Assembly: GCA_008632985.1 (NCBI GenBank)
Contig: QPGO01000057.1
Coordinates: 310,001-374,000, forward strand
Source: Psammoneis japonica
Taxonomy: Eukaryota
Direction of reading: 5' to 3'
DNA length: 64,000 nt
Shown: piece by piece, positions 1-54,200 of the stretch
Numbering within the stretch: position 1 is the first letter of the stretch
Layout: each line of letters opens with the position of its first letter
Made by a program: the position numbers and the translations under genes
The notes under the pieces: generated by a model
The model's database searches: none
The model's input: only the letters and a program-made list of their open reading frames with translations
What the model was told of the DNA's origin: nothing

Positions 1-604
1 CTCCCCGTGCCTTGATGTGGGTTGACAGTGCATTGCTGCAGCCCCTGACTCTGTGATTTGTGGTGCAGTTGTGCTGTGCCACAGAGTTCATTTTCCATGA
101 TTTTTGAATTGCCGCTTTGTTTTTTTTTCATGAGCACGTCCATTGCTGTTGGTTGTTGCATCCTCCACAAAGTTTCAGGGTTGCCACAACCAGCGAAATG
201 CCAACAATCCACATGCACCGGCTTTGGGGGGCAGCCGAACCCTTTTGACAGAGATTTTGGGTCTACAACATTGAATGGCACCCCCTTCCTTGGAGGCACC
301 ACTCTCAGTCTTGCTGGGGAGCAAACCCTCATGGCTCTCTGAGGCTGTCTTGATGTTCAGAGGTGGGGGGGCAGCCACAGGCATCCCAGGCCATGTGAAC
401 AACTTTGCAGAAAGACGTCACCTGGGCACAGCTGCAGCTGGCAACCCAGGCAGTTGCTCAAAATGTTCAGAGACAAGAGCAACCTTGTCTGCCATTTGTG
501 GCTGGACTTTTTGAAAAGTGGTGGACAGCAGATGCAAAAAACAAATGAACACTCTTCACCCTTGGACCACTCCACATGGCATTCAAGTTGAGCCGGCTGG
601 TGAG

Positions 605-845
605 GCATTGGCATCTGCTTGAGCTGCCCAGCAAGGTGTTGGCATCCACAAGGTGTTGGCATCTGCTTGAGCTGCCCAGCAAGGTGTTGGCATCCACTTG
701 TTGAGCCACCTTGCATGCCGCAGCATCTGCTTGAGCTGCCCCATTTGAAGTGGCATCACAACTCAAGCTGCCGCATGACATGGCATCAACTTGAGCCACC
801 CAAATGACATGGTGTCAACTTGAACTGCCCCGCATGACATGGCAT
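605..845 (+). repeat. Short tandem repeats (48-bp and ~30-bp units)
   Basis: tggcatctgcttgagctgcccagcaaggtgttggcatccac occurs twice (~609 and ~657), followed by diverged tggcatcaacttgagc-like units. Confidence 0.85.
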
Positions 846-1559
846 TTTCCTGCAGAGTCCATCCCAAAACAAGACCCGGCACAAATTAAGACCCGTCATG
901 GGTTGCAGCACAAAAAGTGTGCAGAATTTTCTTTTGGTCAAAAAATTCGAGAGGCATCGCGTTTGAAAGAGCGTGGCGAGAGCAGTTGATTGCTGCCCTT
1001 TTTACCCCCCAGAAAAATCTTGGCCCTTGCGTGGCGTGGTCTAATCTTCAGTGCTCAAATCACGTGCATTTCCACATGTGGGTCTTAAATCATGACCTCT
1101 GTGTCAGCCTCGGCTTGTCAGACATTTTGGTTCACATGCTGAAACTCATCAACCATTTAGATTTTCAAAAGTCAAGATTTTTTATGACAAGTTCAATGTG
1201 TTCTTTCACATTCAGGCGTGCAATTCCGAAATGCGCAAACATTGTGGCATCTGCATGGATGGAGATCTCAGGTGGGTCTTGATTTGTGATGAACTCTAGA
1301 AACATGGACAAAGATTAAAGGAAAACAAGATGTTGAGAAAACAAAAAATCACATTGAATCAACACAATCCATCAAATGCCGCAGAGTGATTCACCAACTG
1401 AGAATGTGAGATGAAATGACAGCACAATGATGGAAGCAGTTCTCATTCATTTTTGGACTTTGTCTCACCTCTCTTTTCACAGATGCACTCATCAGAGCAA
1501 AATGAATCATGCCATGCAATGGCGTTGTTGTGGGAAAAGTGTTTGGTGGCAAAATCTGG

Positions 1560-1860
1560 CAACGGTTGATGACACTGTCATGGTGGTTTTGGTGGTGGTT
1601 GGCGGTTGGGGGAGAGGGAAATCTGACCTGACCGGCTGTCGTGACATCACATGATGTGGTCCATCCGTGGTGTGCCAGAATCTGACATTGTGGTGGTGAC
1701 ATCATCAGTCACATGGGAACAGTGTGAAACATCATGATGTGCAGCACTGCATGAGCACACAGGGGGGAATCTGACCTTGCATTCTTGTGATGTTGCATGA
1801 CATTTCACCGCTGTGAGCCAGAATCTGATGTTGCGGCCATGACATCACAGCATGCATCAA
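1560..1860 (+). repeat. Diverged ~145-bp tandem repeat
   Basis: aatctgacc at ~1620 and ~1768; gccagaatctga at ~1674 and ~1818. Confidence 0.7.
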
Positions 1861-3619
1861 CACGGGGGAAGTTTCATTGAGGGTGTGCTCATTGAAATGT
1901 CTGGACAGGAACACAACAAAACGTTGCCGTCATTTAAAAAAATGTCTGGTGTGATGTTGCCAAGCAGAGGGACATCAACACAAGGGATTTTTTGGGGGAG
2001 AAGTCACTTGACATGGTGAACCCCTGACATGCAAACCCAACACAAGGGACTCCCTTGAGATCAAGTCCCTTGAAATGGAAAAAACACCCTCAAGCTTTGC
2101 AGTGTCCAGTGAAACCCATGTTTCCTGTGTGGCTTCTCATTTGCTGTCATTTTGTTTGCCACTGGCACCCTGATCTCAAGCCACAGGACACATTTTGCTG
2201 TCTCCATTTGTTGGTGCCCAAGGGTGACAAAGGCTGTTGCCACAGCTTCCCTCTTGTTGCACCTCCACAAACAATGACAAAAACAGTGTGGGAAGGGCTC
2301 AAGCGTTCACAGCACATGTGTGTGTCATGTTTGGCACAGTCAACTGAGGCAGAGAACAAATGCCAGGATGGCACAAAATGAAGCTTGCCATGCAAAGCAC
2401 CCTGACATGGGGGCATTGGGACATGCCTGCGAAACAAGCAAGTTGGCAATCAGAAAGATGTTGCCCACCAGCTTGGCCAGGGATGGCAACAGGTTTTGTT
2501 TGTGCAAGCAGGGCCAGAGTTGCTCAGCTTCTTTGTGGTCTGGAGTGCATTTTGTGCAGTGGGTGCAAAGGCAGGTGTGCACTCTTGTTGCAGCTGCAAG
2601 CACAATGATGTGACACCAAATGCATGCCGCCAGGCTGAGCAGTCTGGCTCAGTGTGCACCAAACTGCCCCAGGCCAGCTGCCAGCTCTGGGTGCTCTCAG
2701 CATGGTGGTGTTCACTTGTCCAAGCTGCACCACATTGGCTTGGAAAGGCTGCACTTGGGGTGGGCAAAGGAGAAAAGAAAACTTTTCAGCTCAGCTGCTT
2801 GCTTTGGAGTTTGCATTGTGAACAAGAAGCTCTTGAGAAAGAACAAGAAGTGGTGGGGTGCTGATGTCACCAGCATTTCTGGTCATGTCCTCTGCACACT
2901 CAACCACTCCTGGCAGGCACAATGTCACTCAGAGCTGCCTTGCTCTTTGAGCTAGAGCTTGTGCTGTTTGAGCTGGGCTGGTGTCATGGGCATTTGCACA
3001 ACCCTCATGGGCATTTGCACAACACACACAAAAAATGATGGTGAAACACTGTTGATTTTGCCGCCACACTTTCCTTTGTTTGGCACTTGGCTGTTGATGA
3101 CACAACAAGATGCCACTGACCCACTGTGTGCCACACAGCAGGCTGGTGGTGTTTTGGCACATTGGCAAAAGTGTGTGAAACCAACCAAGTGCCTTTGGTT
3201 GAGATGAGCAGACTCCCTGTCAAGAGATGCACATGGCAGAACAGATGCACAGGCCCACGCAGTGCCCCAGACCTGACATTTGTGCACAACACAGTCGACT
3301 GGGCCCAAGCAGCACAAAGAGATCAATGCAGGTGAAAATGAACCAGTTGCTCAGGACTTGAACCCACAGACACTTGGCTTCACTTTTTTGATGTTGCGCC
3401 AAGATGCCGTTGGCCTGCTGTGTGCACACATGGCAGGCCAGTGGCACCTCAGTGTAGTGTCGCCAGGTTTTCAGAGTCTGCTCACATTGCCAATTGCCAG
3501 GGCTGCTCCAAACATTCTGAAAAATGCCTCCTCTCCCACTGGCCAGGCCTGCCTGCACTGTTTCTGAATGTTTGAGCTCATCCCACATGTGGAACTTGCT
3601 GTCCTTTTGCACACCCAGT

Positions 3620-4290
3620 GCCCAAATTGATGAAAATGTTGCTGAGAGGAGAAGAGACAAGGCTGCCAAGATTGAGTGCCATGATCCATGATGCCCAAAA
3701 AGATGGCTCACCCCTCCTTCCTTCAAAATCTTTCTGTGCACCACCAAGCACTCAACTCAATGAAGATGTTTTTAGAGAGGAAAAGAGACAAGGCTGTCAA
3801 GACTCAATGCTGCAACAACACCCACTTTGGCATCATTGGTCTTCTTGCCACTCCAGAGATCTTGTGCACCCCAGACAATGCAAGTTCAGTTTGCATCTCT
3901 TTCAATTTTCATTTGAGATTTTTTGCACTGACACTTCCTTTCAACTTCATCCCCACAGCTGGAGCTTGTGAGGACTTTGCTGCAATGTTCCTTGAACATT
4001 TTTCCACACACTCAGCACTCAACTTGACAAAGATGTTGCTGAGAAGAGAAGAAGAGACAAGGCAGCCAAGACTGAGTGCAAGCATGAGACCCAAATGTGG
4101 CTTGTCCCTCCTCTTGCTCCATTTTGGTGTCCACAGTCTTCTTGCCTCTGAGCGAATCTTGTTTTGTGATGTTGCAATTGGCCCTTGCACCTCCAACAGT
4201 GCAAGAAGCCCATTTTGCATCTCTTTCAACTCTTGTTCAAGATTTGTTGCTGACAGCTCTTTCAGCCTCATTCTCACAATGCAGAAATGA
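3620..4290 (+). repeat. Diverged tandem repeat (three copies of a ~55-bp core within longer units)
   Basis: aagagacaaggc(t/a)g(c/t)caaga core in units beginning ~3627, ~3757 and ~4024; ttgcatctctttcaa at ~3891 and ~4216. Confidence 0.75.
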
Positions 4291-5014
4291 AGCCATTGGC
4301 ACTTTGCAACTTCTTTAAAAGATGCTGTCAAAAACAAAGAAAACATTTTTTGAGTGCTTTGGCCAGAGACCCATGAAGAAGACTGCTGGAATTGGCACAA
4401 CTTCTTCCATCTTCCAAGCCTGCTTCTGGCACCAAGCCATCTTCTTCTGGCACTTCTTTGACTTGTGCTGCAGCAGCATCTCTACTCACATCTCTCCAAG
4501 TCCACATTCAATGAATTGCAGCCATTTAAAAATGCAAAGACTGCACCTTGGGAAGGTTCTCCACAATCAATGCATGGGCTGTGTCTCAGCTGAAAATGGG
4601 CAGAGCATGCAATGCAGTGATTGCAACCACACCCAGTCTTTCTGGCCATCAAGAAAAGCTGTGGGTTGACAGATGCCAAGGCTGTCATTCTTGCTTCTGT
4701 TGTTTGTGGGACAGTGCATTCTGAAGTCATTCAAGCTGCACATGAGCAACACTTGGCTCAAGTTGAGTCAAGCAATGTGATGTGCTTCCAGAGGAACAGC
4801 AAAGTCTCTGTGTGATTCTCCATGTTGGAAAGCAAAGAGACCTGCCTCATCTGCATGTGCACCTGGAAAGTGCTGCTTTTGCCAAACAACAGTTGCTCAA
4901 ACACTCTGAGAGACCATTGGTCACCCAGCCAGATGTCAGACATGCAAAAAGCAGAAAAAGCAGGCTGCTGATTTCATCAACATCTGTTCCAGAGTTGTTG
5001 CAACTCTGCAGTTG

Positions 5015-5976
5015 GCACTGGTCCTCTCCAACAGCCTCCGTGGTTGCATTGCACAGTTCCTTGTTAAACAAACAAATTGCTGCACTGGGTGGTGCAAACA
5101 ACCACTTGGTGGCTTTGCCAAACTGTGAGGTGGAGGGAGCTGCATCAGACATTGTTGTGTGCTTTATGGGCTGTGCCGGTCAACACTGCATGGCAGCCTT
5201 GGTTCTTTTGTTGGTTGGCTGGCAGCCCAAATTGCTTGACACTGTTGCACTGGCTGAAAGCTGTGGAGATGCAACCTGGCACTGGTCCAGGGTGCACGGG
5301 AGTGGCCATTGATGAAGAAGCATCTCATCAAAAAACAATGTCGCACATTGAATCCATGGAAGAGGTTGGAGCCAAGCTGTTGTTGGACGGGCAAGGCTGG
5401 GGCACTGATGTCAAAGGTAGCATCTGGGTGGGTCCTGCCATTTTGCCACATTCAAATGAAAAAGACAAGACAATGTGCAAAGAAGTTTTTGGCCATGTGT
5501 GTCTGTCTGTTTGCAACGCATTCACGTGGGAAGAAGTGATTAAGATTAAGAAATTAAAACTCGTTTGGAAATGCAGCATCCATCTGCACAACCAACGGTG
5601 GCAAAATGCGGAATGGTTCACATCGAAATCCCGCGCTTCCATGCTTGTGGTGTCAACATTGGAATTCCAGTTCCTGGGTGTGCAACGCGGTGTGTGGTCC
5701 TGGACTGATTCTCGAAGCTTCCATCGAATGGCACCTGACTTTCCGCGTATCAACTCACGCTGCTTTTTCTCTTCTTACAGGGGGGCGTTCAGTTTTGGTG
5801 GGTTGTACGGGACAAAGTCAAAGTTTGGTGACACAGACATCGCAGGAGATGGCGCGCTTCAATTCTTCACGAGTCGTATCAAGGTGACGAGTCAGTGGCC
5901 AATTGAAAGGCCTGCTGCCGCTCTTGATCATAATGAAGCGGGTACAGATCATGCTAATTTCGCCGGAACCTTGTGG
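5015..5976 (+). pseudogene. ALDH6A1: Methylmalonate-semialdehyde dehydrogenase (ALDH6 family) pseudogene, 3' half
   Basis: Across shifting frames: ALGGANNHLVALP, GCAGQHCMA (GQRCMA catalytic motif), EVFGHV, NAASICTTNGG, VNIGIPVP, then an intron ~5678-5780, then FSFGGLYGTKSKFGDTDIAGDGALQFFT. Several frameshifts; 5' half unrecognisable. Confidence 0.85.
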
Positions 5977-7609: not shown

Positions 7610-8302
7610 TGTGGTGGAGTAATTCTCCATTGTTTGTTGTGTGCTGTACGGAGCGTTGAACGGATCAGTTTCAACGGCTCAACGGAGAAACAATTGAGTT
7701 GTCAACCCCCATTCAAATTACAGTCGAATTTCAAGGGGCTGCTCTCGCATCTACCGGTACCTTCATCTTGGGCCTCTTTCATGTTGTTTGTCACCCTTCA
7801 ATCTCAATTGTTGCAACTCATCATGTGTGCGGAGCTCTCACTGCCACAATCTCTATGGCAAACAAGGGGAAGACTGCTTGGTGGAAGAGTTGTCAGAAAG
7901 AGATGCCTTTCGCTTTTGTATTGAGCGTTGCAGGCGGCTCAATACTGTGGCAGACTCGAAAACAAACAGGCCTTATGGGCCTCTTGGGCTGAGTCGTTTG
8001 CCTTCGAACATTCGATTGAGAGGCAACATCACCTAGATGCTTCCGAACTTGTCAATAGCGATCCCAAACTGAGACGAGAATGCAGATTAATTGCTATGGA
8101 GGTTGAAAAATGCATGCAAAGCAAATACAGCCAGCATGGTACACAGCTGCTGGAGGAGAGAACGCTTCGAGAGATGGACGACGACAACACACCAGGACCA
8201 CAAACCTTGCACGACAAAGACATTATTCCTGTGCTTTACTGTGTTAATCATGATCACTATGCTCTGGATCGTCACTGTCGCTCACGCAATGCGTCCATCT
8301 AA
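7610..8302 (+). pseudogene. Possible disrupted small Cys-containing protein gene
   Basis: Protein-like text split over frames (HCHNLYGKQGEDCLVEELSE / KRCLSLLY* / QAAQYCG...ASWAESFAF...ECRLIAMEVEKCM). It abuts block B. Confidence 0.3.
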
Positions 8303-10930
8303 AATTTTGCAGGACCATTGGCACTTTGGCTTGCTGCACTTCGTCTTTGCCATCAGAGAATTCTCCAGATTTTAGTGTTCTTTCTGCACAGTCTTTTCCC
8401 GGTGGCAACAGACAATCCCATTTCCCATTTTCGCCATGACAGACGCAGGTCCATCCTTGGAATGAACATTGGGAAAGCTGCTACCTCTGCTGTTGCAATG
8501 AATTAGCTCCAATCATCAAGCTCAACTGGGCTCAAGAGAAAAAGTGTTCAATCTCCTGACTTGAACCCTGTGCTGAGTGGGACTCTGAAAAATGTCCATG
8601 GCAAAGGTGGAAATGTCAAGCCATCAATGAAGTGAGTTCAAGCAGATGGGAAAGGCATGTCATTGGAAGACACCAAAGAGTTGCTCCACATTTGCTGTGA
8701 ACTTGGCACTGGCCTTTTTGACCTTGGGACTGCCCCAATCTGTCGAGGATGTGGATGAGTTGATTCCTGGTTTCACACTTTTGGGAGTACATTTTAGTGC
8801 AGCGCCTCTTGCCATGGCATCCCAAAAAAATTAATTGTGTTGATTCTTCACTTGCCATTGAAAGCAACAATTGAAAAGACTGCAGCATCAGAGCCATCTT
8901 TGAATTTGTCAAAAAGCCAGTTGTTCTGTCTGTGATTTGTCCCTTGACATTTGCTCTGCACGACACCCACCAACAGCAGCCCTGTGCCCCCTGTTGGGGC
9001 TTTCTTGAGCCGCAAAATGTCAACCAGCTGGCAGAGCTTCAGAAACAGCTGCAAACTGGGAAGCTGAAATGTCATCCTCCACTCTTCTTGCCACTGCCAA
9101 GAGGACTCTTGTTGACTGCATTGCACCCAATGGAATGTGCGTGCTGTTGACAAGACATGCACATGATCAAAACCCTGAAAAGGGCAATTTGTCCATGGAT
9201 GCCAATGACAGAAATGGTTCTCTGGGCACTGCCAAGAACAGCAGCACTCATGGCAGTTGCTTCTGGAGATGGCAACCTCAATGTCTTGGACAATGCTGGC
9301 TGTGTGTCAATGTGGCACATCAACCCAGGCGGGAGTCTCTCCAGCCAGCTGCTGGCTGAAGAATCTTGTGTGAAATTTGCGCTGAAAGAGTCTGTCAATC
9401 CATGTGTCAGGGGGTTTTGGTGAACACTGGATGACTTGTCGTCCATTGGGTGCGTGAAATGCACTGGCAAAATCCCCAAATGCACTCATGAGCAGACTTT
9501 TTTTCAGCCAGCAGCTGGCTGGAAACTTCCCCAAAACCAGCACTGCCAAAATGCATGGACCACATCAATTGCTTTTCTCTTGTCACTTGCTGTCATTTGT
9601 GCTGAAAGAATCACACACAGAGAGCCTCATTGTTCAAGCCAAACAAGGTCCAGAGCTGGGACCCATTTGATTGTCAGGGTCAGCTTTGCCAGACAAGGTG
9701 GGCTCAGCACAAGATGCAATTGTTGTCATGCCTGTGAAATGGCACATGGCATCAAATGTGTGTGCCTTTGCCATTGCAAATGTCATCACTGAATGTGTCA
9801 TGGATGACAGCCCACAGTTTTTTTAAAATCCAAGCCGTCTCATGTCCTGGTGGTGGCTTTGCTTGTTGCTTCTGTTTTGCCAATCATTTCCTGATCACCG
9901 CAAGGCATTCAAACGCCATTTCACAAGCGATTGAAAGTCATCAAGTGGCGCGCATGAAAAAACTGTTGAAGTTGGCCATGGTGTGACTTGCTTCTCTCTG
10001 TGACAGCAATGTGGAGGATCACAACTTGGTTGCCTTGCCATCCAAATTGCCCTCAGTTGCTTTTTTGTCCCAGTGTCATTGTCGTCGGGTTCCAGCAGTG
10101 AGGGACCTGCGAGGTGATCATGGGACATTCCTTTGCATCATGCACTCGCCAAATTTCTGTGAGCTGGCACTCCCATCTTGCAGACATGCATTGGAGACCA
10201 GGCATCATTTCCAATTCATGTCCCTGACAGCATGTGAAGTGACAAGGAACTCTCAGTTGCTGCGGTGAAGGTGTTTTCTGAAGTCTTGCTCAAGGAAGCT
10301 GGCACCTGAGCTCTCTTTGGATGACAAAGACTCACTGTTGTCTTTGCCACAAATCTGCAACATGTGCAGACTTTGTTTGTTGGGTCATGAACATCATTTT
10401 TGAAGCAGTTTGTTTTCCGGCAAGCAAGTTTGCACCAACAAAGACTTGATGACAGCTTTGAACAGAAAGCGCTGGCCTCACCTGTGTCCGCGCGTCCTTC
10501 CAAGATAATGCTAAAGTCAATCAAGCTGCGTGTGAACAACACTTAAGGCGCTTTGGGTTGAGTAATGTCACACGCTTCCAGAGGAGTGGCAGAGTCCCAC
10601 AGTAAATGTCCATGTTGAACAGCAAGGAGATTGCTTGCCTGTGCGTGCGCCTGAGAGGGGCTGCTTTCGCTGAGCGACCACTTGATGAACCCATGAGTCC
10701 GTTGGTGACCCGAATAGACATTAGACATGTAGAAATAGGCTGCAGACTTCATCCACATCTATTCCAGAGTTATTTTATCTGTATATATATACGATCGGCA
10801 TTGATTTTGGGTGTGCAACAGCATTGTCCGTGCAGCCTTCAGCGCGCAGTCTGAGCCGGTGGTCGAAATGCTTGCTTGCACGCGGTCGCTTCATGCCAAT
10901 CAACGCAGAGAGCCTTTGCAACTTGGAACT
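8300..10930. mobile_element. Block B: degenerate TpA/CpG-depleted DNA
   Basis: Only a handful of TA in 8500-10500, mostly tttaaa/ttaat/ttag. Spurious Tyr-free ORFs in all frames. Confidence 0.7.
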
Positions 10931-39928: not shown

Positions 39929-40015
39929 AGAAACTAGTTGCTGCGTAACGAGTAGTATACATGCTTTTGTATTTTGTACTTGTGCCGTGAATTACAATTG
40001 TGCTGAGTAACTAGC
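39868..40015 (+). repeat. Direct repeat copy 1 (3' end of the cyclophilin-like gene)
   Basis: Near-identical to 44167-44320. Confidence 0.9.
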
Positions 40016-41691: not shown

Positions 41692-41944
41692 GGTGGACCG
41701 TGAACTGACGAGCAATTCAGAAATTGTGAGAGCCTTCGAACGAGAAGAGATTCTGTCTGCAATTGAGGCAACTTGGTACAAACCACGTAGAAATCTACGT
41801 GTCATCAGCCGTTATCGCGTTGAGTTGATGTTCGCAGAAAGTTTCGCGATAGTTATTTTGGCGCAGTTGTCGTACCTATCGATCTTAGTCTATCGTGCTT
41901 TTAACATTTTCCGTCTCAAACGTAAACATCTGTGCTTCACTTTA

Positions 41945-44166: not shown

Positions 44167-44320
44167 CCATCATGAGGATCATCATGACCACGATCATCAT
44201 CATGAGGACCATCATGAAGCCTATCATTAGAGAATACAGTTGCTGCGTAACGAGTAGTATACATGCTTTTGTATTTTGTGGTTGTGCTGTGAATGGTAAT
44301 TGAACTGAGAAACGAGATGC
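44167..44320 (+). repeat. Direct repeat copy 2
   Basis: ccatcatgaggatcatcatgaccacg...gcctatcattagagaa...gttgctgcgtaacgagtagtatacatgcttttgtattttgt matches 39868 onward. Confidence 0.9.
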
Positions 44321-44579
44321 AGACAACGGCACGGTTGCTGTCGACCCTCGCATAAGGTCGGTACTTTCGACAATGAGCGCAAAACCAAAACAGTGAGCAA
44401 AGGCTGGTGCCTTGTGTTTTGATGACTTCGCTCTAGAGTACTGTATGTACATGTAAGTGATGCCACAATTCGCACAAGACCAGAAGAATGAAGTTTAAAA
44501 GGCACAGCATTCAAAATAGCTAGCGAGATGAAGGCATTTTCAAATTACTCCGAGCAAACAAAATGCAACATGACTTGCT

Positions 44580-45333
44580 CTACGGTAGGGCCCTAGAGCG
44601 CAAGCTCCCAAGCTCAAACCGATTTTTACAATGCCCTCTATTTTCTTGGACGACCTGCTTGTGCGCCTTGCGTCCAGCTCGCGCACCCATAACAATCAAG
44701 CTGGGTTTCTTTTTCGTCTGAATAGCTTCTTTGTATGACAGCTTCAATATAATATCTGAAATTTCTTGCTCCGATTGACTCTTGTCAGGAAATATCAATT
44801 TCCCCTTGTGCAGAATCTGAATACGGGTGGCAGAAAGGTTCACAGGTGCTGAGAAACACAAAAAGTAAAATATTGGAGGCATAAGCCTATACAACATTCT
44901 GTACCTTGAGATCATCATCGAGATCCTTGCCGAGCACACGAGCGACTCTTGCTTGGGCAGTTTCCCCTTCCGGAACCGCGAGCCAATAATTCTGAGATCC
45001 ATACGCAAATGCTACAACTCCACCAGCTGCGATCTCCTTTTTCTCACCCAATAAGACCTCAAAAGAGGAATTATCACAAATGGAAACAACGAATTCGGTT
45101 TTGCAGGAAGGACACTTTGCTCCCGGTTCCTGCAAGGATGCAACGAGCGGTACAAGGGAGCACGCATGACCGCATCCACGAGACGATGGAACGATCGTAC
45201 TATTAACCCTGGCCACGTCCAAATCCGAGTCAGGAAGAGCTTGTCCCGTCAGAGGACACGTTTCTTTACGCTTTGATAGCGCATTATTTGTATCAACTCC
45301 GTCTTGGCTTTTATCGTCGTCGCGAATCGTCAT
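44580..45333 (-). CDS. Small protein with RING-like Cys motif and ubiquitin-like domain
   Basis: CPLTG...CGHAC...CPSC; LK|ILHKGKLI...LIVMG; intron 44904-44817. Confidence 0.6.
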
Positions 45334-45752
45334 GGTGCACTTGTTGTTATTGATGATGGGAAGCAACAAACGCCGCAGCTCCGGTGGCAGGAAAAACACT
45401 TCAGCGCGTAAAGGAGCTAATAAGAAAAGAGGTAAAGGACATAATGGAGAAGCAAAAAGCCTCATCGAACAAACAAACGATGATTGATGATTCTTGGATT
45501 TTTTTTTTTTGGCCAGATCCGGGACTGTCAGTCCGTCAGTCCCGATTCAGTCGTGGTCGCGGATCACATGCTGAAAGCGCTCGGCGCGCGCGCGCGAAAC
45601 TGGATGTACAGTAGAGCGATCGCCTAATCTCAATACGCTCCTCTCGCAACCCGCACTGAGCACCACATCAACATAATCAACAAGAAGTGTTGTGAAGTGT
45701 GAGGCAAAGAGAGGAAGAAGTAACAGTGAAACAACGCCATTCTTATTACAGC

Positions 45753-47231
45753 ATGAGCTCACTCCTTGCTGGCCCCAATCGTCTAACGGAATGGATCGAG
45801 AACTCTACCTTTGACGCCATTATCAAAGGACCAGAATCGGTTGAATACCGCCCAAAGCTCGTTCAAGTGCTTTCGCGAGGGGGGCGCGGTTGGTCCGCCA
45901 GCAACACAGCCGCTGACTCTTGCTGTCCTCCATATTTAATTATACATGACGGACGGATATCTGCAGCTGCTTTTTTGTCCCATAAGGCCCAACAAGAGCT
46001 CGGTATGCATGAGAATCGTGCTGCAAACAAAGCTACAAAGGGATGTATCGTTCGTATTTCTGGATGGACAATCTCAACAGTGAAGGCGTGTGCTGAAACG
46101 GAAGACCATTTTTTGCGTTTGACCCAGCCACCACCCAACACTACTCGATTCTCTTGTCTAAATCGGTTGATATCGACGCCACTTTGTCTTGTGGTTGAAG
46201 GCGTGGAGACTTTGGGAGGACAAGGGATGGGGATAGTTGGCAACGCTGTAGACGTCAATGAATCAGTTCAGGTCAGGCGAGCCTTGCAGTCCATTCAACA
46301 TGACTACAACACTCTTTGCCAGAGATTAAAGCTCCAGGATACTGTAGAAAATATACCCGTGGGGGATGTGACGAAACTAGGTACATCGGACTTTGATCTC
46401 GTGCTTCAGCAAATTGACGATCCGCAAAAAGAACAAGAAGCCGTGCCTGTTGGAAACGTTCAACAACTTTTCAATGCATCAAACCGGAATGATTCAGTAC
46501 AAGACAATCCATTGGATGAATTATTCTGTCTGGCGGAACAGCAATCTGCGACGCATGGCCAAGCATCGGTTGCCCGTACAGCCGACTCTCATCAAACGCA
46601 AGATGGAAATATCGGCAGCGTTTCTCTGTTACTTGAGCACGATCACCAAGCTGTTGGGAACAAATTCGATGCCATTCTAGCATTGGCAGAACAGCAACGA
46701 AAAGCAGAAGCATCTGCAAATAATGAGACGCGGCAGCCGGACTTGGAAGAAAACACCCACGACGAGACGCGTGATGACGGGGATTCGAGTACATCAAAAG
46801 GCTTCCTTGGACGACTGAGTGATATATTTGCGACTGCCGCTAGAAAAATGTCGCCGTCGCAGATAAAAAGAACCGAGGCTACACAAGAGCGCAATACCAC
46901 AGAGACAATGGAGATGAGCGACCAAGAGTCTGAAAGTGAAGAAATTGTGGAAATAAGTGAAATGCTTGCTTCGCAACCAGATCAAAGTCAGCAAGACGAA
47001 AACGACGCGCCAATGGAAGCTGAGAAAGAAAAAGTTGTAGAAAAGAAATTAAGCAGGTGGGTGGTAGATGACGGGAGGCCATTAAAAAAGCACAAAGCAA
47101 GCAGTGAATTCTTTGCAGAGCTCAGGAGACTTGGACGAGAAGAAGGCGACATGACCTTTTCTCCTGGTACCGTCACCGACACAATTGCAGGGGATATTCG
47201 CAGCTGGCTGGATTGCCATGTAAAGGCATGA
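45753..47231 (+). CDS. Hypothetical protein, N-terminal OB-fold-like (TPP1/Est3-like) + acidic disordered tail
   Basis: Intact ORF of ~490 aa; LTEWIE...LVQVL...LIIHDG...AAFLS...KGCIVRI pattern. Confidence 0.65.
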   Translation: MSSLLAGPNRLTEWIENSTFDAIIKGPESVEYRPKLVQVLSRGGRGWSASNTAADSCCPPYLIIHDGRISAAAFLSHKAQQELGMHENRAANKATKGCIVRISGWTISTVKACAETEDHFLRLTQPPPNTTRFSCLNRLISTPLCLVVEGVETLGGQGMGIVGNAVDVNESVQVRRALQSIQHDYNTLCQRLKLQDTVENIPVGDVTKLGTSDFDLVLQQIDDPQKEQEAVPVGNVQQLFNASNRNDSVQDNPLDELFCLAEQQSATHGQASVARTADSHQTQDGNIGSVSLLLEHDHQAVGNKFDAILALAEQQRKAEASANNETRQPDLEENTHDETRDDGDSSTSKGFLGRLSDIFATAARKMSPSQIKRTEATQERNTTETMEMSDQESESEEIVEISEMLASQPDQSQQDENDAPMEAEKEKVVEKKLSRWVVDDGRPLKKHKASSEFFAELRRLGREEGDMTFSPGTVTDTIAGDIRSWLDCHVKA

Positions 47232-47640
47232 GCATAAAATATGGGATAGAGCGTAATTGTAGCGACTCTTCGTTGATTTCAGTAGTCTTGAACCAACTAC
47301 ATCTATGAAAAAGGCCAAGACGCGCGTATACTCATGCTGAGCAAATTCCTCTACCGTCGGTTGCTTACAGGGGTCTTAATCGAAAATACGGGCGATAGAA
47401 TGAGAATCTAGAGAGTAGTGGCTACGCATTCTGCCACCATCTCTCATCGATCTACGGTACCGCGGGAATCTCTATGACGCCCGACGAAGATCAGTGCCAA
47501 ATCAATTCCGAGGATGCGGCGAGAGCAGCTGACATTTCATAAATCAAGTAAGTTACAAGTTTATCCGCACCTTTATTCATTGTCTTGTACCAACAGAAAC
47601 TACTAGACAATTCATCAAAAGGTACGGTAGACGAAGACTC

Positions 47641-49978
47641 TCATTCTTCCTTTTTGTCCAGGTCGACTAGTTCATCAATGGCAGCGAATTGCCGCGTCCA
47701 CCTTGGATACAAAAACTGACGCAAGTCAAATCGATTGTCATCGGGGGAGTAGGCCTCAGCATGGTACGCCGGTGTAATGGTGCACATTTTATGGCGGTTT
47801 ATGGAGTAATAAAAGAAGAACCGCTTAACCTTGTCAGCCACCTCTTTTGCTGACAAATGGCTCCAAGTGACGCGCAACTTTCGAAACCTAAGGCAAAAAC
47901 GAGCATATTCGTAAAAGTGAGAACGCAGCATACTACGTTTTAACTCAGGTCACAATGGCAATGGAGCTGATACGTACATGCTGACGGGCCCACAGCGCGA
48001 TATCTTTCTTAGCCTGCCATAATAGCCTAATTCCTCATAGGACATTCCCATTTCTTCTTCGTCCAACTGCGAATGCTCGGCACTTTCATCTCCTTCATCT
48101 GCAATGGGTCGCAACTCTGCCGTTGGCGGTGCTCCGGCAACTTCTGCCAAGACACCATAACCGCTGTACTCTTTCGCGGCCCACAAGAGCATATTCTTCA
48201 AATCCATTTTTGAGATTGCCCCGATGGGATTCAAGTCCGCCGAAGAGCAGTCATACTTGGTCATGTATCCGCGGAGTCCTTCGTCAACATTGGCGCTGCC
48301 CAACACCAATAAGAATCCAGAAGAGCCGCGGACCCATGGCAACAACTGAGCAAAGAGATAAGCTGTTACCATTCGAAGTCTTGCTTGAATATTTTGAAGT
48401 GCCAAGTCCTCAGACATGGTTCCTCCTTGGGATGTAAAGCGAGGCGTCTTGCCAGTAACGAGACAGAATACTTTTAGGACAGCTTGCACCATAAGGTCCA
48501 TGGTGATGGCGAGATGGTAACATCCAATGGCGTCTGCGAGACGCTCCGCACGAGATTTTGTCACGTTGGAAGAGTTCTCGGTCCCCATGTACATTGTATG
48601 CAATACTTGATTTGCTACATCTTGAGAACAAGTAGGAATCCAGTCAGTATCTTTGTGGCAGACGCGACGGCAGTCTTCGGCAACCTTTGGATCTGTCAAG
48701 GCGGCTTCGGCAACCATGTGGCACATGGCACCGACAATGGCAGCTACAGATGACGAATCGGCTCCTCCTGCGGCAAAACCCATGGAAAGGCGAAGACGCA
48801 TAGCAAGTCAGTTTTACAACGAACAAGAAAAGCGCTCAAAGAAGCCTCAGAATTTGTTGTAACGCACCACTCAGAGGCAACAGGAAACCGGAAGCTCCAG
48901 AGCGACGAAGATAATCCCATAGCCAGCACGCAGGTCCCAAGCAACACTCTTCTTCAGGAGAGTGAAACCGCAGAGCCGGTTGAGGCACCGTAGGAGAAAT
49001 TGTCTTGTCATCGCTCATGGCGCAAATGTCATGACAGGGAATACTACGGCGTCGTTTTGAAGATGCCTGTTGCGAGGACGCAGCTTGAATACCAAACGAG
49101 GGAATGGACGCACGGTACGACCTCACGTCATCCAGATCAACCGTGGCAACAATGGTTTGAACGTCTCGTACATCAAACTGTTGCGCTTGGGCTAGAATTT
49201 GCCCATTGCATACAATCATGGCACATCCATCATAGTACAATCTTCCGCCGTCGCATCCACGTTGGTTGCTATAAAGGTAAATGCCACCGCATTTGCGAGT
49301 AGCACTTACCATGAGTTCAAGACGCGTATGTAACTTTCGTAATTCGTGATGAGATCCCGAGCCATTTCCAATAATCTCGACACCCTGTAACGCAGCGTCA
49401 ATGTGAGAGCTATGCGGAGTCCATAATTCCTCGCACGATTCGCATCCCACCGTGACGCCATCGCCCAATTGCAAAAAGTGAAAGCCAAAGGGTGCCTCTG
49501 TCTGTCCAAACTTTTGCTGAAAGGTGCGGGGTAGCAACAGCATAGTTGCTTCTTGAGCTTCCTGCGGTTGATAAGCCGTAAAGTACCGTGATTCTCGGTA
49601 ATTCCCGTTGTCAGCCATGGCGAGTTTCGGTCGAATCAAAAGAATCTTTTTGTTGAAGCATAAGATACGGCAGTTGTATCTTACACCGGCATACAAGACG
49701 GGCATTCCAAAGTCACAGAGCAACCCATCTGTCGCACCCTTTTCCAGCAACTCGATAAGACACGACCAGCAGTGATCAAAGGTGTCTACCTCGAGAAAGT
49801 GATCTTCGCAGCCATACCCGCACACTTCCAATTCAGGTCCGAGTCGATACGATGCGCCCTGCTCCTTTGCTTGTTGACAGCTCTCCAAGATTCGTTGTAC
49901 GTTTCCGTCAAAGTCTAAGGCCCATTGATTCAAGTTGCACGCTGCAACCGTGACTAGTGAACCAGACCCTGCCGTCAT
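47641..49978 (-). CDS. NADSYN1: Glutamine-dependent NAD+ synthetase, 3 exons
   Basis: [43 protein letters not shown] and [19 protein letters not shown]. Confidence 0.97.
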
Positions 49979-50136
49979 GGTAATACTGTAGCAGGTCGAG
50001 TTTCTGATGTGTGGGGAAGATAGCGAAGATCGTCGCTAGCCTGCGAACCAATCGCGGAAGTCTGTTCTGTGTCCGTCGTCGTCGTCCTTCTAAAAGTTTG
50101 CTCCAGCTACTCTCTACCGGTACTACCAGCTATAGT

Positions 50137-50157
50137 AGAGAGAGAGAGAGAGAGAGC
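50137..50157. repeat. (AG)n microsatellite
   Basis: agagagagagagagagagag. Confidence 0.85.
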
Positions 50158-50273
50158 AGCTCTCTCTAGTATCATAGCTAGTCGCAGTATCGGTATAGCT
50201 GCACTACGCAAAAAGCACTTTAACAATTTAAACTAATGGCTGTCAAAGCTAACAGCACCTTACGGTAGTAGAG

Positions 50274-51251
50274 CTACCACCCGTTCTCCACGTCAATTAC
50301 GACACGGCCAACTTTGGCAGGATCAAACTGGCGCTTAAAGGCATCATTGAGTTCCGAAATCTTGAAATGAGAGTCAATATCAATGACAAGAGACTTGTTC
50401 GAGAGCCATTCACCCACTAGTTCAAAATCAGCTCGCACGGGTTTGCAAGCAACGCAATGATTCTTGGATGGAGCGAGCAGGGAGATGGTCTTGTCACGGA
50501 AGAGCCCAATTGACGGTAACGTCTGCACATAAGCTCCTCCCATGACAAGCATATGCTTGACCTGCCACCAAGAGTAGTGTTGGGCACGTCGAATATGACA
50601 TTGTAAGTGCCCCTTGGAGTGTTTTGAACAGCATCTGGGTCTGTTTTGCGATCAATCACAACGTCAGCACCCATTTCTTGACTCGCTCAACGTCCTTTGT
50701 CGAGCATAGTGCAGTAACGTGGCTTTAAGGTTCTTGGCAATCATAACGGCAGCTGATCCTACCCCACCGCCGGCTCCAATAATGAGGATCTTTTGTCCTT
50801 CCGACAGTCCGCCATGATCACGCATAGCCTGAAGGGCTGTCAAACTCTCACAAGCGGACGCAGCAGCAATGTCAAAAGGAACATCTTGAGGCTTTATTGC
50901 TGTCATTTCTCGCGCAATCACAATGTACTCGGAGAAGGATCCCTGAATTTGATTCGGATCGTACTCTAAAAATCCAAAGACTTCGTCTCCCTCCTTCAAG
51001 TCTGTTACTTCTGAACCGAGAGCATCAACAGTACCCGCATAGTGCCATCCAATAACAAGAGGCTTATATTTCATATCGTGAATGTATGTTCCACTTGGGT
51101 CGTTGGCCAACACGGCATCTGAACCGGTATCAATGGCAGCACAAACAACCTTGACTCTTATCTCGTTCGGTCTCGTTTCGGGAATTGGTATTTCGACTAG
51201 CTGCGCCGGACTTGTTTCGTCCGTAAACACTTCCATAGCTTTCATCGACAT
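50274..51251 (-). CDS. MDR-family NAD(P)-dependent oxidoreductase (quinone reductase/RTN4IP1-like)
   Basis: GSFSEY, LTALQAM, IIGAGGGVGSAAV, GADVVID and GRVVI. Three one-base shifts (~50721, ~50676, ~50578). Confidence 0.85.
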
Positions 51252-51429
51252 TGTTGATTACTAAGTGTATTGTTTAAAATCCAGACGACTAAAAGTATGG
51301 TAAGAGGCGGTTTTATTTACACAATGCGGTAGAGAGTCGTCGTTCTGGGCGGCTAAAAGTACAGCGGCCATTTTCGAATCATTCGACCGCCTGCGACCAC
51401 ACCGACCACCAATAAACTAAACTTATTAC

Positions 51430-54200
51430 GTGCTGAAAATCATGGTTGGGAACAACAATGTGATTGAAACAAAAGATCTGGCCACAATTTGTTCCACCTT
51501 AATGGCAATGCACTCCCTTTCCCTGGAGGATGATCTGTGGCCCCTTCCTTGTCTTTGCAAGCGCGACTCTTTCCTTTCACCAACCAACTTCTCCAGATGT
51601 TGGATTTTTGGAAGAAAAGTCAGAGTTGGGCATTTTGTCCCCTGTGGCCACATCGGCAGTGATGCCAACATGCCAATGATCACTTGCTTGGAGCTCCTTG
51701 ACATGTGCTGCATGTGCACCAAAGTTTGGATGCCTTTCATGGAGTGGAAGTGGCGGTCAAAGTTGAGAGGGGCTTTGCAGCTGCAATGGCACCCTTGACT
51801 TTTCTGATGAAAGATGAAAGGAAAGGGAGCATGACTCCACTGCAGGAATGAATGTTCCATCAGTTTGATGTGCGAAGTGACCCCAGCAGATCCATGTTCA
51901 TTTTCAAGGCATGACCCTGCCTTGTCTTTCATTTCATGGGAGCCTTTTGCCAAGGCAAGCATGCCCAGTTTTGTTGTCAAACTCGCTGATGGCACAGTCC
52001 ATTCAAGTGAAAAGGTGGATCCTGTTTCAAAACAAATTGGCACTGCCCATGATGGATTGTGAGAGTTGAAATCTTTTTGCACCCTTGCCTTCCACCAGAT
52101 CCCCACCTCCAAGTGACAAGACACAACTCAGAAGAAGCAGCAAAGAAACAAGGGGTTGCTGTGCTTCACCTTGTCAAACACATTGGCTGGTCAGCAGAAA
52201 CAAATTGAGTTGCACTTTTGTGCTCATGATTTTTGCTCATGAACTGATTGTGCAACTTGTTGAATTTCAAATGATTTGTTTGCCAGATCATGGCTCAGCT
52301 GCACCAACTCTTCACTTGCCAGAAAGCAGCTGTTCACTGGGGCTTTAAAGAAGAGAGCAACTCCAGAGGGATTTCCAGGTGTGGTTGGTCCTCATTGCCT
52401 TTTGCTGGTGTGCCGCAGATGACATGTTTTTTGCACCAACAATGTGTGCCAACCTTTGCAGAGGTCCAGCAAGGCTGTGTGTTCTGCTCAAAAAGAGGAG
52501 TGTTGCCCATCAAAAGCAACCTGACAGAGGACTGCTCACAACCATTCAGAAATTGTGAGATCTCCTCACAATGCAAACACATGGGATGCCACTGCCTTTT
52601 TCCCTCTCTGTTGCAATGCATTGGTTGCATGTGTCAAGCACTTTGCATTTGCCTCTGTGAAGAATGCAACATGTGCTTTCCACTCAAACCTGCAGAGACT
52701 CATGAAAAGTGCCATTTCTGACATCCTGTGACATTGTGTTGATGTGATCCTCCTGACCAAAACCTGTCAATGCACAATGTAGATTTGATCACACACATGC
52801 AAGAACTTGCACAATGAACCCAGCTCAAACAAGACTTGATGTCCTTCCCCATACATTGCTTTCCTCTGCCTGTGCTTGAACTTGACCCAGCCATGCTTGG
52901 CTCTTGCCAACTCTCTTGCTGGCTTGCACCCACCAGCATGCCAAGTTTGCACTCTTCCACAAAGGGCAAACAGCCCTCACAGAGTTGCTGCATTTGACTC
53001 TTGAGAATGGCACCTGTGCATGCCAGAGAACATTTGGTGCAAGTCATTCTGCTCAAAAGGCCAGCTGGGCAGCTGGACAAGCTGTGCTGCAACCCACTGT
53101 CTGAAACAAATGCTGCTGGGCATGCATGGCTCTCTCCCATCCTCAGCAACTTTCTGCTTTGCAATTTTTTTCTCGTTGCCTTCTGATTTTCAATGATGGC
53201 TGAAGTTGGTCTCGTTGCTCTTGTTTTTCCCAGCACCTTGCTTCAACCACCACCTGCCCAGGTTTGCCAACTTTGTTTTGAAATGTTGTGAACATTGTTT
53301 TCTTCACTGGGCTCACATTGTCTGCAGGAAGCTAAAACGTGCTGTGTTGCACACAAAAACAATCTGGTTTTCTCTCCTCATGCAATGGAGAGCACACTTG
53401 CCCTTCTTTGAGAATGAAGAAAAAGAAAGGCCTTGCCAAGACCCAACATGCTGAGAATGGATGGCTGTCATGCTGCGGTGCCATTGCTCTCAGGAAGTTT
53501 GGCCTCTGGAAGCAACAACACCTGCCATTTCAACAAAAACACCCATGATGTGCAGTCAGCAATGCTTCAAATCTTACCTTGCCAAAGCCCTTGCAGCCTG
53601 CTGCAAGTGCTTGTGACAGCTGACAAGCAGTCTCTTGTTTTCACCTTCCATGGAGCCAGGCTCTGCACATGAATGATGTCATAAAAAGGTGCTTTTGAGT
53701 TCCTGGCTCTCATCACATTCCCACAAAGGCAGCTGCACTGACGCACCTCTCAAAATGACAAAGATTGCTCAACAAAGTCTCAGCCCACAGCAAGAGGGAT
53801 GTGGGGACTCCAGCTGCATTTCCTGCCCACGGAGCAAACAGGCATGTGTCTCTGTGAACACACAGCAAAAAAGTTCTTGAAGGGGGGCCCCTCGCAGCAC
53901 TGGACTGTGACACAAAAGTTTTGCTTTGTCATGCGCTGCATGTTGCAAGCATGCATTTCTGCTTGTGACTTTGGCAGCATCATGTGTCATTTTGTGGTTC
54001 AATTTTTGGGCCATCCACTCAACAACTTTTTGACTTTTTTGCAGCACCACTCTCAAATGTCTTGAGAGCAGTGCAGGGTAGGTGGATTTTTGAAAATGTT
54101 GAGTGTTGAGAGGCACAATTGCACCACAAATTGGTTGTCGAACTGAACTCTAATTCTGCTGAGAAGGCATGATGACACAACCCTAACCTACAGTGCCATG
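51430..54200. mobile_element. Block F: degenerate TpA/CpG-depleted DNA
   Basis: About ten TA in 2.7 kb; very CA/TG-rich; Tyr-poor ORFs in all frames. Confidence 0.7.

Follow-up and report, generated by a model that had tools for sequence, protein, structure and literature searches.

Six sharply delimited blocks, together 16.7 kb of the 64-kb window analysed here (the window being the whole stretch of DNA), are almost free of TA, poor in CG, and rich in CA and TG. We consider it probable that they were made by an in-place, regionally confined hypermutation at TpA accompanied by decay of CpG. Hypermutation of TpA to TpG or CpA has so far been reported only in one unrelated alga. The host of the blocks, according to their flanking genes, is a raphid pennate diatom; a glutathione reductase ORF in the window shared 85% identity with its Seminavis robusta counterpart, confirming the diatom origin that had been proposed from the sequence.

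Results

The blocks were recognized using sliding windows, dinucleotide counts, and gaps between TA dinucleotides, with the last defining their limits. Block 1 (positions 1–5500), which is open at the window start, contained 19 TA and 52 CG in 5500 bp; block 2 (8505–10505) contained 4 TA and 25 CG in 2001 bp, with TA returning from 10506; and block 3 (16942–19778), which is purine-rich on the plus strand and carries an internal direct repeat, contained 5 TA and 30 CG in 2837 bp. The purge was least complete in block 4 (25040–26597; 10 TA and 25 CG in 1558 bp). Block 5 (41944–44166) had a single TA, in a TTTAAA at 43267, and 28 CG in 2222 bp, and block 6 (51501–54078) had 6 TA and 15 CG in 2578 bp. 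The block totals given below (16,752 bp) count block 5 to 44221 instead of 44166; TA is absent from 44167–44221 in the unpurged paralogue too.

In these 16,752 bp, we counted 45 TA (observed/expected ratio (o/e), 0.04), 176 CG (0.18), 1839 CA (1.77), and 1928 TG (1.83). The remaining 47,248 bp had 1918 TA (o/e, 0.58) and 2553 CG (0.97), with o/e values of 1.18 for CA and 1.19 for TG. The G+C content was 48% in the blocks versus 47% outside, and pyrimidine–purine steps made up 23.8% of dinucleotides inside versus 24.2% outside, indicating that the missing TA and CG are offset by the surplus CA and TG. At the outside TA frequency (0.0406), 2e-6 TA-free runs of at least 500 bp would be expected; 14 were observed, every one in the blocks, which excludes chance. 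The longest TA-free run outside was 212 bp. A sequence-only reading of this DNA had described six blocks poor in TA and CG with abundant CA and TG, lying between DNA of normal composition; the blocks are real, the DNA between them is normal, and the two examples given were exact (no TA and 3 CG in 1937–2952; 1 TA in 41945–44221), although some of the proposed limits (1–5700, 8300–10930, and 51430–54200) were 100–400 bp too wide.

TA loss and CG loss have common edges, within ~50 bp. At 11 edges set by TA only, CG fell from 23–27 to 10–12 per 50-bp bin summed over the edges, and CA+TG rose at the same place from ~88 to ~120 per 50-bp bin, likewise summed. Ten of the 11 edges were sharp to ~50 bp or less, and the right edge of block 1 was gradual. 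Such sharp edges would also fit inserted pre-mutated DNA or young insertions beside DNA purged long before. High summed contig depth was seen in the sequence that adjoins block 5 on both sides and block 6 on the right. Next to block 5, a repeat-like sequence of normal composition outside the purged DNA (40500–41943; TA o/e, 0.55–0.98) had a summed contig depth of 1600–2170, compared with 58–190 elsewhere, with as many as 18 variant contigs at a site; it gave no Pfam match. Internal repeats occur in blocks 1 and 3, but this high-depth repeat is unpurged. The right edge of block 5 is marked by a plus-strand copy (44167–44316) of the 3′ end of a His-rich ORF (39023–39928) and its downstream DNA, which matches 39868–40014 with 89% identity over 150 bp.

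The gradual edge of block 1 lies in a plus-strand pseudogene fragment resembling methylmalonate-semialdehyde dehydrogenase (Aldedh; 5022–5973), identified by tblastn with 6 homologues. The fragment begins at approximately homologue residue 226. Its reading frame shifts near 5246/5257, and at 5650–5775 it contains a ~105-nt insert, relative to the homologues, with a 3′ splice-site–like end. The last ~480 bp of block 1 lie within it, its 5′ part being purged and its 3′ part normal. We polarized the changes by alignment to 35 homologues, assigning Tyr sites by homologue majority. All four such Tyr sites up to 5587 were lost, three to His (CAY) and one to Cys (TGC), and all four conserved Arg residues in 5022–5500 had become His or Gln (CAC, CAA). 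Further changes relative to the homologues were TCG>TTG, GCG>GTG, and, following a T, ACC>GCC. The unpurged 3′ end retains Tyr as TAC and Arg as CGT, CGC, and AGG, and the purge fades between ~5420 and 5590. These results show that the hypermutation affected ~500 bp of a host pseudogene flanking the block.

Paralogues gave the same direction of change. A ~280-bp plus-strand repeat is present as a purged copy in block 1 (4718–4999) and as a copy of normal composition directly after block 2 (10508–10774), the two being 68% identical in ACGT letters and 86% identical in purine/pyrimidine letters. In the purged copy, each of the 10 TA found in the normal copy was replaced (5 by TG and 5 by CA), as was each of the 9 CG (6 by CA and 3 by TG); 9 CA/TG doublets, for which extra assumptions are needed, also separate the copies. 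A 74-bp palindrome in block 1 (3389–3462) is perfect in purine/pyrimidine letters, with 14 of 37 arm positions mismatched, every one by a transition, and neither transversions nor gaps. The block 3 repeat (17369–17619 and 18965–19213) showed 53 transitions, 13 transversions, and 13 CA/TG doublets. Five in-block repeat pairs (565 aligned bases) differed by 128 transitions, 26 transversions, and 30 CA/TG doublets, and two outside pairs (240 aligned bases) by 19, 13, and 0, respectively.

Since the outgroup and paralogue comparisons agree in direction, they support a regional mutational process that converted TA to CA or TG alongside CG to CA or TG. The depletion within the blocks is mutational and arose in place, and, as judged from these alignments, the change is shown to postdate the placement of the sequences. 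The polarity and paralogue evidence is direct for blocks 1 and 3; for blocks 2, 4, 5, and 6, we infer the same process from their identical composition. Of the targeted TpA mutator in silenced DNA that the sequence-only reading had put forward, the regional TA-to-CA/TG change is upheld by the dehydrogenase outgroups and the paralogues; the transposon targets are not, no Pfam transposon match having been found.

The blocks carry no recognizable transposon, viral, or coding signal, and may be degraded or noncoding foreign DNA. Translating the 6 blocks in every one of the six frames, with stops read through, yielded no Pfam family besides the Aldedh fragment, and a purine period-3 signal was seen in 2 of 92 block windows versus 19% of 299 outside windows. 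Among viral contigs, there was no relative of one ORF that neighbours the blocks.

The surviving sites point to a wider sequence context. TTAA accounted for 14 of 42 surviving TA in the blocks (7 of them TTTAAA) versus 83 of 1922 outside (Fisher p = 3e-9), and its survival was 0.49 compared with 0–0.16 for other TA contexts. Since TTAA is largely spared, this suggests that the target on each strand is T-A-(C/G/T), that is, T-A-(not A). Among CG sites, survival was 0.45 for GCGC and ~0.10 for TCGA/TCGT. The (CA+TG)/TA ratio in the blocks was 3767/45 = 84, which, if the blocks are at equilibrium, means that TA is lost ~80 times faster than it is re-created; on the same assumption, CG would be lost ~21 times faster.

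Contigs from a public run (X1), whose library type is not recorded, covered 30 of 30 bins of 40500–55500. A contig inside block 5 (43466–44121) showed 4 differences in 656 letters, and one across the left edge of block 6 (51229–51661) showed none; 0.66 of the sampled words of 40500–45500 were present in X1. Differences between X1 contigs included CG/TG, TA/TG, TA/CA, and CA/TG, as seen in the 40 of 967 rows listed. The blocks are thus reproduced by contigs that match them, ruling out an assembly or polishing artefact, although X1 is possibly the assembly's own sample and hence not an independent platform.

Discussion

Mutation accumulation has demonstrated TpA-specific A>G/T>C hypermutation in Bigelowiella natans, a chlorarachniophyte (Mettrop et al., bioRxiv 2026, 10.64898/2026.01.13.699255), which supersedes the view, taken in the sequence-only reading, that no such process had been described. 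According to the available text of that preprint, two integrated viral regions gained 231 new mutations, of which 230 were A>G/T>C changes, each of them at TpA; the TpA rate was ~6e-7 per site per generation, exceeding that of the remaining genome by orders of magnitude; and new TpA mutations arose in only some lines. The same text describes 124 TpA-depleted, CpA+TpG-enriched clusters, mostly unannotated, names an ADAT2-like candidate, proposes a defence against foreign DNA, and mentions in its Discussion that ADAR prefers a 5′ U. We found no report of TpA hypermutation in diatoms in the literature searched.

In both cases, A>G/T>C changes at TpA yield TpG/CpA on either strand, are regionally restricted, and leave a TpA-depleted, CpA+TpG-enriched footprint; by this analogy, the process in the diatom is probably of the same kind. 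The two cases differ in that the present host is a stramenopile and B. natans a rhizarian, and in that TA depletion is saturated here (o/e, 0.04), compared with Rho values in the available text of 0.45 for the NCLDV region and at most 0.43 for the clusters. The islands here are 1.5–5.5 kb long without a viral or transposon domain, and one extends into a host pseudogene, whereas the B. natans targets described there are viral. CpG loss is co-extensive here and CpG is unmentioned in that text, so that, as far as the text goes, the coupling to CpG loss is without precedent; likewise, the sparing of TTAA is seen here, and the text gives no wider context. The diatom case is a historical footprint alone, whereas the B. 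natans mutations were observed as they arose. What is new here is the co-extensive CpG loss, the saturation, and the non-viral targets.

Fungal RIP, which is triggered by duplicated sequence and depends on a sexual cycle, is likewise regional, transition-only, and dinucleotide-specific, degrades non-genic DNA, and can spill into flanks. However, RIP converts CpA to TpA and enriches TA, whereas here TA is destroyed and CpA/TpG enriched; RIP was rejected, both of its indices being opposite (TpA/ApT = 45/898 = 0.05; (CpA+TpG)/(ApC+GpT) = 3767/1845 = 2.04). Methylated repeats lose CpG through 5-methylcytosine deamination, for example in vertebrates, and we know of no methylation-driven process that removes TpA. 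The blocks resemble such decay in the CG>TG/CA change, a CpG o/e near 0.2, and slower loss at G/C-flanked sites, and the direction agrees (CG to CA/TG at 9 of 9 paralogue sites, Arg CGN to CAN, and TCG>TTG), but this decay accounts for the CG half alone. Diatoms methylate transposons, according to the available text of a published study (PMC9998398).

We propose that the islands are non-genic DNA of a pennate diatom nuclear genome on which a regionally confined transition hypermutation would have acted in place until saturation. At TpA, T>C or A>G on either strand would yield CpA or TpG, and in the same islands CpG would decay to TpG/CpA. The CpG loss presumably reflects deamination of 5-methylcytosine, which would make the islands long-standing methylated, silenced chromatin. 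A methylation or silencing mark, or a small-RNA guide, would recruit the TpA mutator; that its targeting is linked to methylation we regard as nearly an even call. In the most speculative step, a polynucleotide deaminase (ADAT2/TadA-like or another CDA-fold enzyme) would convert adenine in DNA to inosine, to be read as G at replication, and adenine deamination is accordingly offered as a tentative choice of chemistry.

Since TA is its own reverse complement, adenine deamination and thymine-directed chemistry leave identical footprints. Alternatively, a TET/JBP-type enzyme could oxidize or modify the T of TpA (5hmU/5fU), or this T could be mis-repaired, to give T>C, the same regional process with another last step. 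We consider this rather unlikely, although 5hmU is reported to favour TpA in dinoflagellate DNA; the B. natans authors prefer A-deamination, in the available text from the candidate gene only (10.64898/2026.01.13.699255).

The proposed process would resemble ADAR/APOBEC editing in animals in being a defence through deaminase-driven, clustered transitions. However, ADAR and APOBEC have RNA or single-stranded cDNA as their substrates, prior to integration, and the tracts they leave are strand-coordinated, whereas the outcomes here are interleaved across both strands, arose in place, and are coupled to CpG loss. Blocks hypermutated in this manner as RNA, cDNA, or free viral DNA and then inserted would have their junctions as sharp edges, as at 10 of 11 edges here, several of them junctions with high-depth sequence. 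This account is nevertheless improbable: the block 1 purge continues into the host dehydrogenase fragment before fading, the fragment's apparent retained intron argues against a processed retrocopy, and the CpG loss with the same edges is left unexplained. Neighbouring CA/TG steps were of the same kind at 0.489 in the blocks versus 0.526 outside (~0.50 at lags 2–10); the outcomes are thus interleaved, unlike single-strand editing bursts, and in the absence of strand-coordinated A>G tracts, ADAR-type RNA hyper-editing fixed by retrotransposition was rejected. ADAR is also, to our knowledge, metazoan-specific.

One of the two mechanisms suggested in the sequence-only reading, in which a Pol eta-like polymerase would make errors at WA motifs during patch repair of methylated DNA, has little probability. 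The WA hotspot motifs are TA and AA, and repair of T:G mismatches after 5-methylcytosine deamination would put the polymerase in domains of CpG loss. However, AA is enriched (o/e, 1.28 inside and 1.13 outside), TA in the blocks is best preserved within the trinucleotides TAA/TTA, with TTAA surviving as noted, and the changes are nearly all transitions, so that this reading is disfavoured. Still less probable is a composition that was intrinsic or selected, with elements that have avoided TA and CG from the outset, for instance as a way of evading a nuclease or sensor. For blocks 2, 4, 5, and 6, no unmutated relative was found, but the outgroup-polarized loss of Tyr and Arg codons, the replaced TA/CG sites of the normal paralogue, the CA/TG doublets between in-block repeats, and a lack of coding periodicity on which selection could act all speak against it, and for block 1 it is largely refuted. 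Sequencing, base-calling, or polishing error in modified DNA has a negligible probability, incomplete word recovery in X1 notwithstanding, as k-mer contigs at a depth of 58–190 give the block sequence and a block edge almost letter for letter and miscalls would not yield the dehydrogenase amino acid pattern or the repeat doublets.

In-place TpA hypermutation with CpG decay thus remains our preferred explanation. It is conceivable, if somewhat unlikely, that diatoms and chlorarachniophytes share an ancient, chromatin-coupled genome defence by DNA editing, in which a CpG-methylation–bearing mark would recruit a deaminase-type mutator to sharp islands, erasing TpA (T-A-not-A, with TTAA spared) and, via the same enzyme or domain, CpG. 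If so, silenced DNA would be pushed irreversibly to a CA/TG-rich state without TAA or TAG stop codons, and if a single enzyme acts on both TpA and CpG, that enzyme would represent a naturally occurring adenine/cytosine deaminase of double-stranded DNA.

Results

A 500-bp sliding count, together with a list of the gaps between successive TA dinucleotides over the whole window, was used to detect TA-depleted blocks. The TA gap list delimited six of them, at 1-5500, 8505-10505, 16942-19778, 25040-26597, 41944-44166, and 51501-54078 (blocks 1 to 6). The pooled blocks (16,752 bp) contained 45 TA (observed/expected [o/e], 0.04), 176 CG (0.18), 1839 CA (1.77), and 1928 TG (1.83), versus 1918 TA (0.58) and 2553 CG (0.97) in the remaining 47,248 bp, where the o/e of CA and TG was 1.18 and 1.19, respectively. 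The G+C content was alike (48% in the blocks and 47% in the rest of the window). A sequence-only reading had proposed that such blocks were purged of both TpA and CpG, and its numerical examples proved exact on recounting (0 TA and 3 CG in 1937-2952; 1 TA in 41945-44221). All 14 TA-free runs of at least 500 bp lay in the blocks, with 2e-6 expected at the outside TA frequency, and the longest TA-free run outside them was 212 bp. Pyrimidine–purine steps accounted for 23.8% of dinucleotides in the blocks versus 24.2% outside, indicating that the lost TA and CG were balanced by surplus CA and TG. The trinucleotides most enriched in the blocks were TGC, CTG, GCA, CAC, and GTG, as expected if GTA/TAC and GCG/CGC are converted into them. 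A coding stretch at 22001-22500, adjoining a (CAG)n run (22611-22642), had only 5 TA (o/e 0.21), with normal CG (29) and a G+C content of 0.56; it is of ordinary composition and not a purged block.

The ORFs between the blocks encoded ordinary eukaryotic proteins, including CDC20, a Vps4-like AAA ATPase, a mitochondrial carrier, a CN-hydrolase, glutathione reductase, thiamin pyrophosphokinase, and a RecG-like helicase. The glutathione reductase ORF shared 85% identity with a protein of Seminavis robusta, and its other named relatives came from pennate and centric diatoms, showing that the window is raphid pennate diatom DNA and not DNA of Bigelowiella. On the minus strand at 56253-60058, two overlapping ORFs, split near 58000 by a frameshift or short intron, encoded the RecG-like helicase (wedge, DEAD, Helicase_C, and RecG_dom3_C) and, after it, an RNase_T-type exonuclease domain.

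The direction of change was visible in an ~280-bp repeat, of which one copy lies in block 1 (4718-4999) and a copy of normal composition directly follows block 2 (10508-10774). At each of the 10 TA in the normal copy, the purged copy reads TG (5) or CA (5), and at each of the 9 CG it reads CA (6) or TG (3). The pair differed by 55 transitions and 22 transversions over 266 aligned bases, and its identity rose from 68% by letters to 86% by purine/pyrimidine class. Five repeat pairs within blocks (565 aligned bases) showed 128 transitions, 26 transversions, and 30 doublets, in which CA in one copy faces TG in the other, versus 19 transitions, 13 transversions, and no doublets in two pairs outside (240 aligned bases). 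Each doublet should be the trace of one ancestral TA or CG resolved independently in the two copies, and the block 3 repeat carried 13 doublets against ~11 expected from a normal TA plus CG density. A 74-bp palindrome in block 1 (3389-3462) was perfect in purine/pyrimidine letters, and the mismatches at 14 of its 37 arm positions were all transitions. Direct polarity or paralogue evidence came from blocks 1 and 3 only, and their identical composition suggests that the same process acted in blocks 2, 4, 5, and 6. Across 3094-3171, 3388-3462, and 3600-4280, block 1 contained two related palindromes, the 74-bp one among them, as well as several ~80-95-bp repeats lying ~130-400 bp from one another, all detectable mainly in purine/pyrimidine letters.

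Next to block boundaries, dinucleotide counts per 50-bp bin were summed over 11 edges set from TA alone. Across these edges, CG fell from 23-27 to 10-12 per bin and CA+TG rose from ~88 to ~120 at the same place, demonstrating that TA and CG depletion are co-extensive to ~50 bp. No strand-coordinated CA or TG tracts were found within the blocks; the two outcomes were interleaved, and neighboring CA/TG steps were of the same kind at a frequency of 0.489 versus 0.526 outside.

The only gradual edge, from ~5420 to ~5590, lies within a methylmalonate-semialdehyde-dehydrogenase-like (ALDH) pseudogene fragment at the right end of block 1 (5022-5973, plus strand), which begins at about residue 226 of its homologues. 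The fragment has a frameshift near 5246/5257 and an ~105-nt insert relative to homologues; since the insert ends in a 3′ splice-site-like sequence, the pseudogene appears to retain an intron. The purged zone takes in the 5′ part of the fragment and leaves the 3′ part outside. Residue changes were scored against the majority residue in an alignment with 35 homologues. In the purged 5′ part (up to 5587), all four Tyr sites were changed to His (CAT, CAC, CAC) or Cys (TGC); further 3′, one of two was retained (TAC) and the other was Phe (TTT). Likewise, all four Arg sites in 5022-5500 were changed to His or Gln (CAC, CAA, CAC, CAA), and three of the four further 3′ were retained (CGC, AGG, CGT), the fourth being Lys (AAA). 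The purged part also showed Ser TCG to TTG, Ala GCG to GTG, and Thr to Ala at an ACC codon preceded by T. A different kind of ALDH decay, consisting entirely of transversions in an A/T-rich patch, was seen just 3′ of the purged zone (5540-5650): conserved Asn to Lys three times (AAY to AAA), Gly to Trp twice (GGG to TGG), and Gly to Val once.

The TA sites surviving in the blocks were strongly biased, as 14 of 42 were TTAA (7 of them TTTAAA) versus 83 of 1922 outside (Fisher p = 3e-9). TA survival was 0.49 for TTAA and 0-0.16 for all other NTAN contexts. The simplest reading is that the per-strand target is T-A-(not A), with protection only where both strands read TAA. CG survival was highest for GCGC (0.45) and lowest for TCGA/TCGT (~0.10). 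In vertebrate CpG decay, G/C flanks have a slowing effect, and the survival pattern fits deamination slowed in this way. The (CA+TG)/TA and (CA+TG)/CG ratios in the blocks were 84 and 21; assuming equilibrium, TA and CG would be lost ~80 and ~20 times faster, respectively, than they are re-created.

We then asked what the blocks consist of. A six-frame read-through Pfam search of the six blocks and their flanks, with stops read as X, detected no family beyond the Aldedh fragment. The purine period-3 signal of coding DNA, which is insensitive to transitions, was present in 2 of 92 block windows versus 19% of 299 outside windows. Long ORFs within blocks are as expected where TGA is the sole remaining stop, and the scarcity of stops in block 3 (minus strand) and block 5 (plus strand) tracked the pyrimidine skew of these blocks. 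Summed contig depth, which is no more than a hint of copy number, was 105-234 in the blocks, near that of neighboring genes (58-155). Together, these results indicate that the blocks are low-copy non-coding DNA. Summed depth reached 560-2170 at 40500-42000, 44007-44507, and 54027-54527, which adjoin blocks 5 and 6 and are of normal composition. At least one high-depth neighbor is unpurged, and duplication alone does not appear to predict purging.

One such neighbor, 40500-41943, has normal composition, resembles a repeat family (summed depth 1600-2170), and includes an unannotated 245-aa ORF (41068-41805, minus strand), for which a search of viral contigs found no relatives. Among 40 of 967 read-difference rows, its variant contigs differed from the window by TA to TG, TA to CA, and one TG to CA doublet, so other copies of this family may be partly purged. 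A His/Asp/Glu-rich ORF at 39023-39928 ends in a 12-27-bp tandem array, and a second copy of its final ~55 coding bases and the ~95 bp after them, 89% identical, sits at 44167-44316, the right edge of block 5; the intervening 4.15 kb consists of the high-depth repeat and block 5. Block 5 showed no resemblance to the gene upstream of 39868, even when the two were compared by purine/pyrimidine class, and the idea that it is a purged copy of that gene was rejected.

Reproduction of the blocks was examined in a public sequencing run (X1), whose kind was guessed as DNA, in the form of k-mer contigs compared with 40500-55500. X1 contained 0.66 of the sampled words of 40500-45500, and its contigs covered 30 of 30 bins of 40500-55500. 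Within block 5, for example, X1 contigs showed 4 differences over 656 letters (43466-44121) and 11 differences with 6 gaps (42354-42976), and a contig across the left edge of block 6 (51229-51661) showed none. This agreement excludes an assembly or polishing artefact, X1 being possibly the assembly's own sample and hence not an independent platform. Contigs of a second run (X2) left the four block 5 bins uncovered and gave a cover of 0-5 within block 6, which is not evidence on expression. X2 contigs skipped ~90 bp (47886-47975) and ~100 bp (48767-48866) with CT..AC ends, corresponding to GT..AG introns of the minus-strand ORFs 47950-48801 and 48836-49978; X2, guessed as DNA, therefore behaves like an RNA run. 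Contigs of both runs joined 48830 to 50851 with "CG" between the two sides, omitting 2020 bp that contain the CN-hydrolase ORF (48836-49978); a deletion allele or a variant haplotype may underlie this join.

To sample other diatoms, we examined 649 kb of metagenome sequence, made up of 80 loci that surround relatives of glutathione reductase; ~110 kb of this was diatom-like by our reading (L008, L010, L012-L014, L021, L022, L024, L027-L029). No window with at most 2 TA per 500 bp was found in the 80 loci, except in high-G+C contigs with 39-104 CG there. The ~110 kb of block-free diatom-like DNA is too little to judge distribution and serves as a negative control for the criterion only.

Discussion

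The blocks record a regionally confined process that, acting in place and by transitions alone, removed both TA (leaving CA or TG on either strand) and CG. The two losses have common edges, TTAA is spared, and the purge extends into a host pseudogene. We know of no natural TpA-aimed mutator of nuclear DNA before a 2026 preprint on one chlorarachniophyte. Mutation-accumulation lines of that organism, Bigelowiella natans, yielded 302 nuclear mutations, of which 231 lay in two integrated viral regions (a rate there of ~6e-7 per site per generation). Of the 231, 230 were A>G/T>C, every one of them at TpA, and only some lines showed the process (Mettrop et al., bioRxiv 10.64898/2026.01.13.699255). 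The B. natans genome contains 124 TpA-depleted, CpA+TpG-enriched clusters, mostly unannotated, and an ADAT2-like deaminase was proposed. The signature is the same as ours, whereas the diatom host belongs to a different supergroup lineage, its depletion is far more complete, and its islands are not recognizably viral. The diatom TpA purge is also coupled to CpG loss, whereas the text of the preprint is silent on CpG and on diatoms. Full-text literature searches yielded no diatom description, and this preprint was the single matching report. The change in the diatom blocks runs opposite to that of fungal RIP (TpA/ApT in the blocks, 0.05; (CpA+TpG)/(ApC+GpT), 2.04).

We infer that CG was lost through deamination of 5mC. 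In that case, the islands would be domains that have long been methylated or silenced, and the mark or guide responsible would also recruit the TpA mutator. Its chemistry might, speculatively, be adenine deamination in DNA. Thymine modification at TpA is indistinguishable from this, because TA is self-complementary. Error-prone repair by Pol eta, which the sequence-only reading had put forward, is disfavored, given the lack of AA depletion and the sparing of TAA. The edge that fades inside the ALDH pseudogene and the absence of strand-coordinated tracts likewise disfavor editing before integration. An intrinsic composition is largely excluded, as is an artefact.

The co-extension of TA and CG loss suggests a tie of the TpA mutator to DNA methylation or heterochromatin, the sparing of TTAA provides a testable substrate motif, and the reach of the purge into a host pseudogene argues for domain-based, not sequence-based, targeting. 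Genetic manipulation is feasible in some diatoms, which would allow knockout of candidate deaminases or base-modifying enzymes. A deaminase that acts naturally on DNA adenine, if there is one, would be of interest for base editing. Such islands also mask sequence origin in similarity searches and skew local mutation-rate and composition models. A saturated footprint in a pennate diatom would mean that the process is not peculiar to one lineage, and would suggest that eukaryotes have a widespread and possibly ancient form of genome defense, opposite in its working to fungal RIP.
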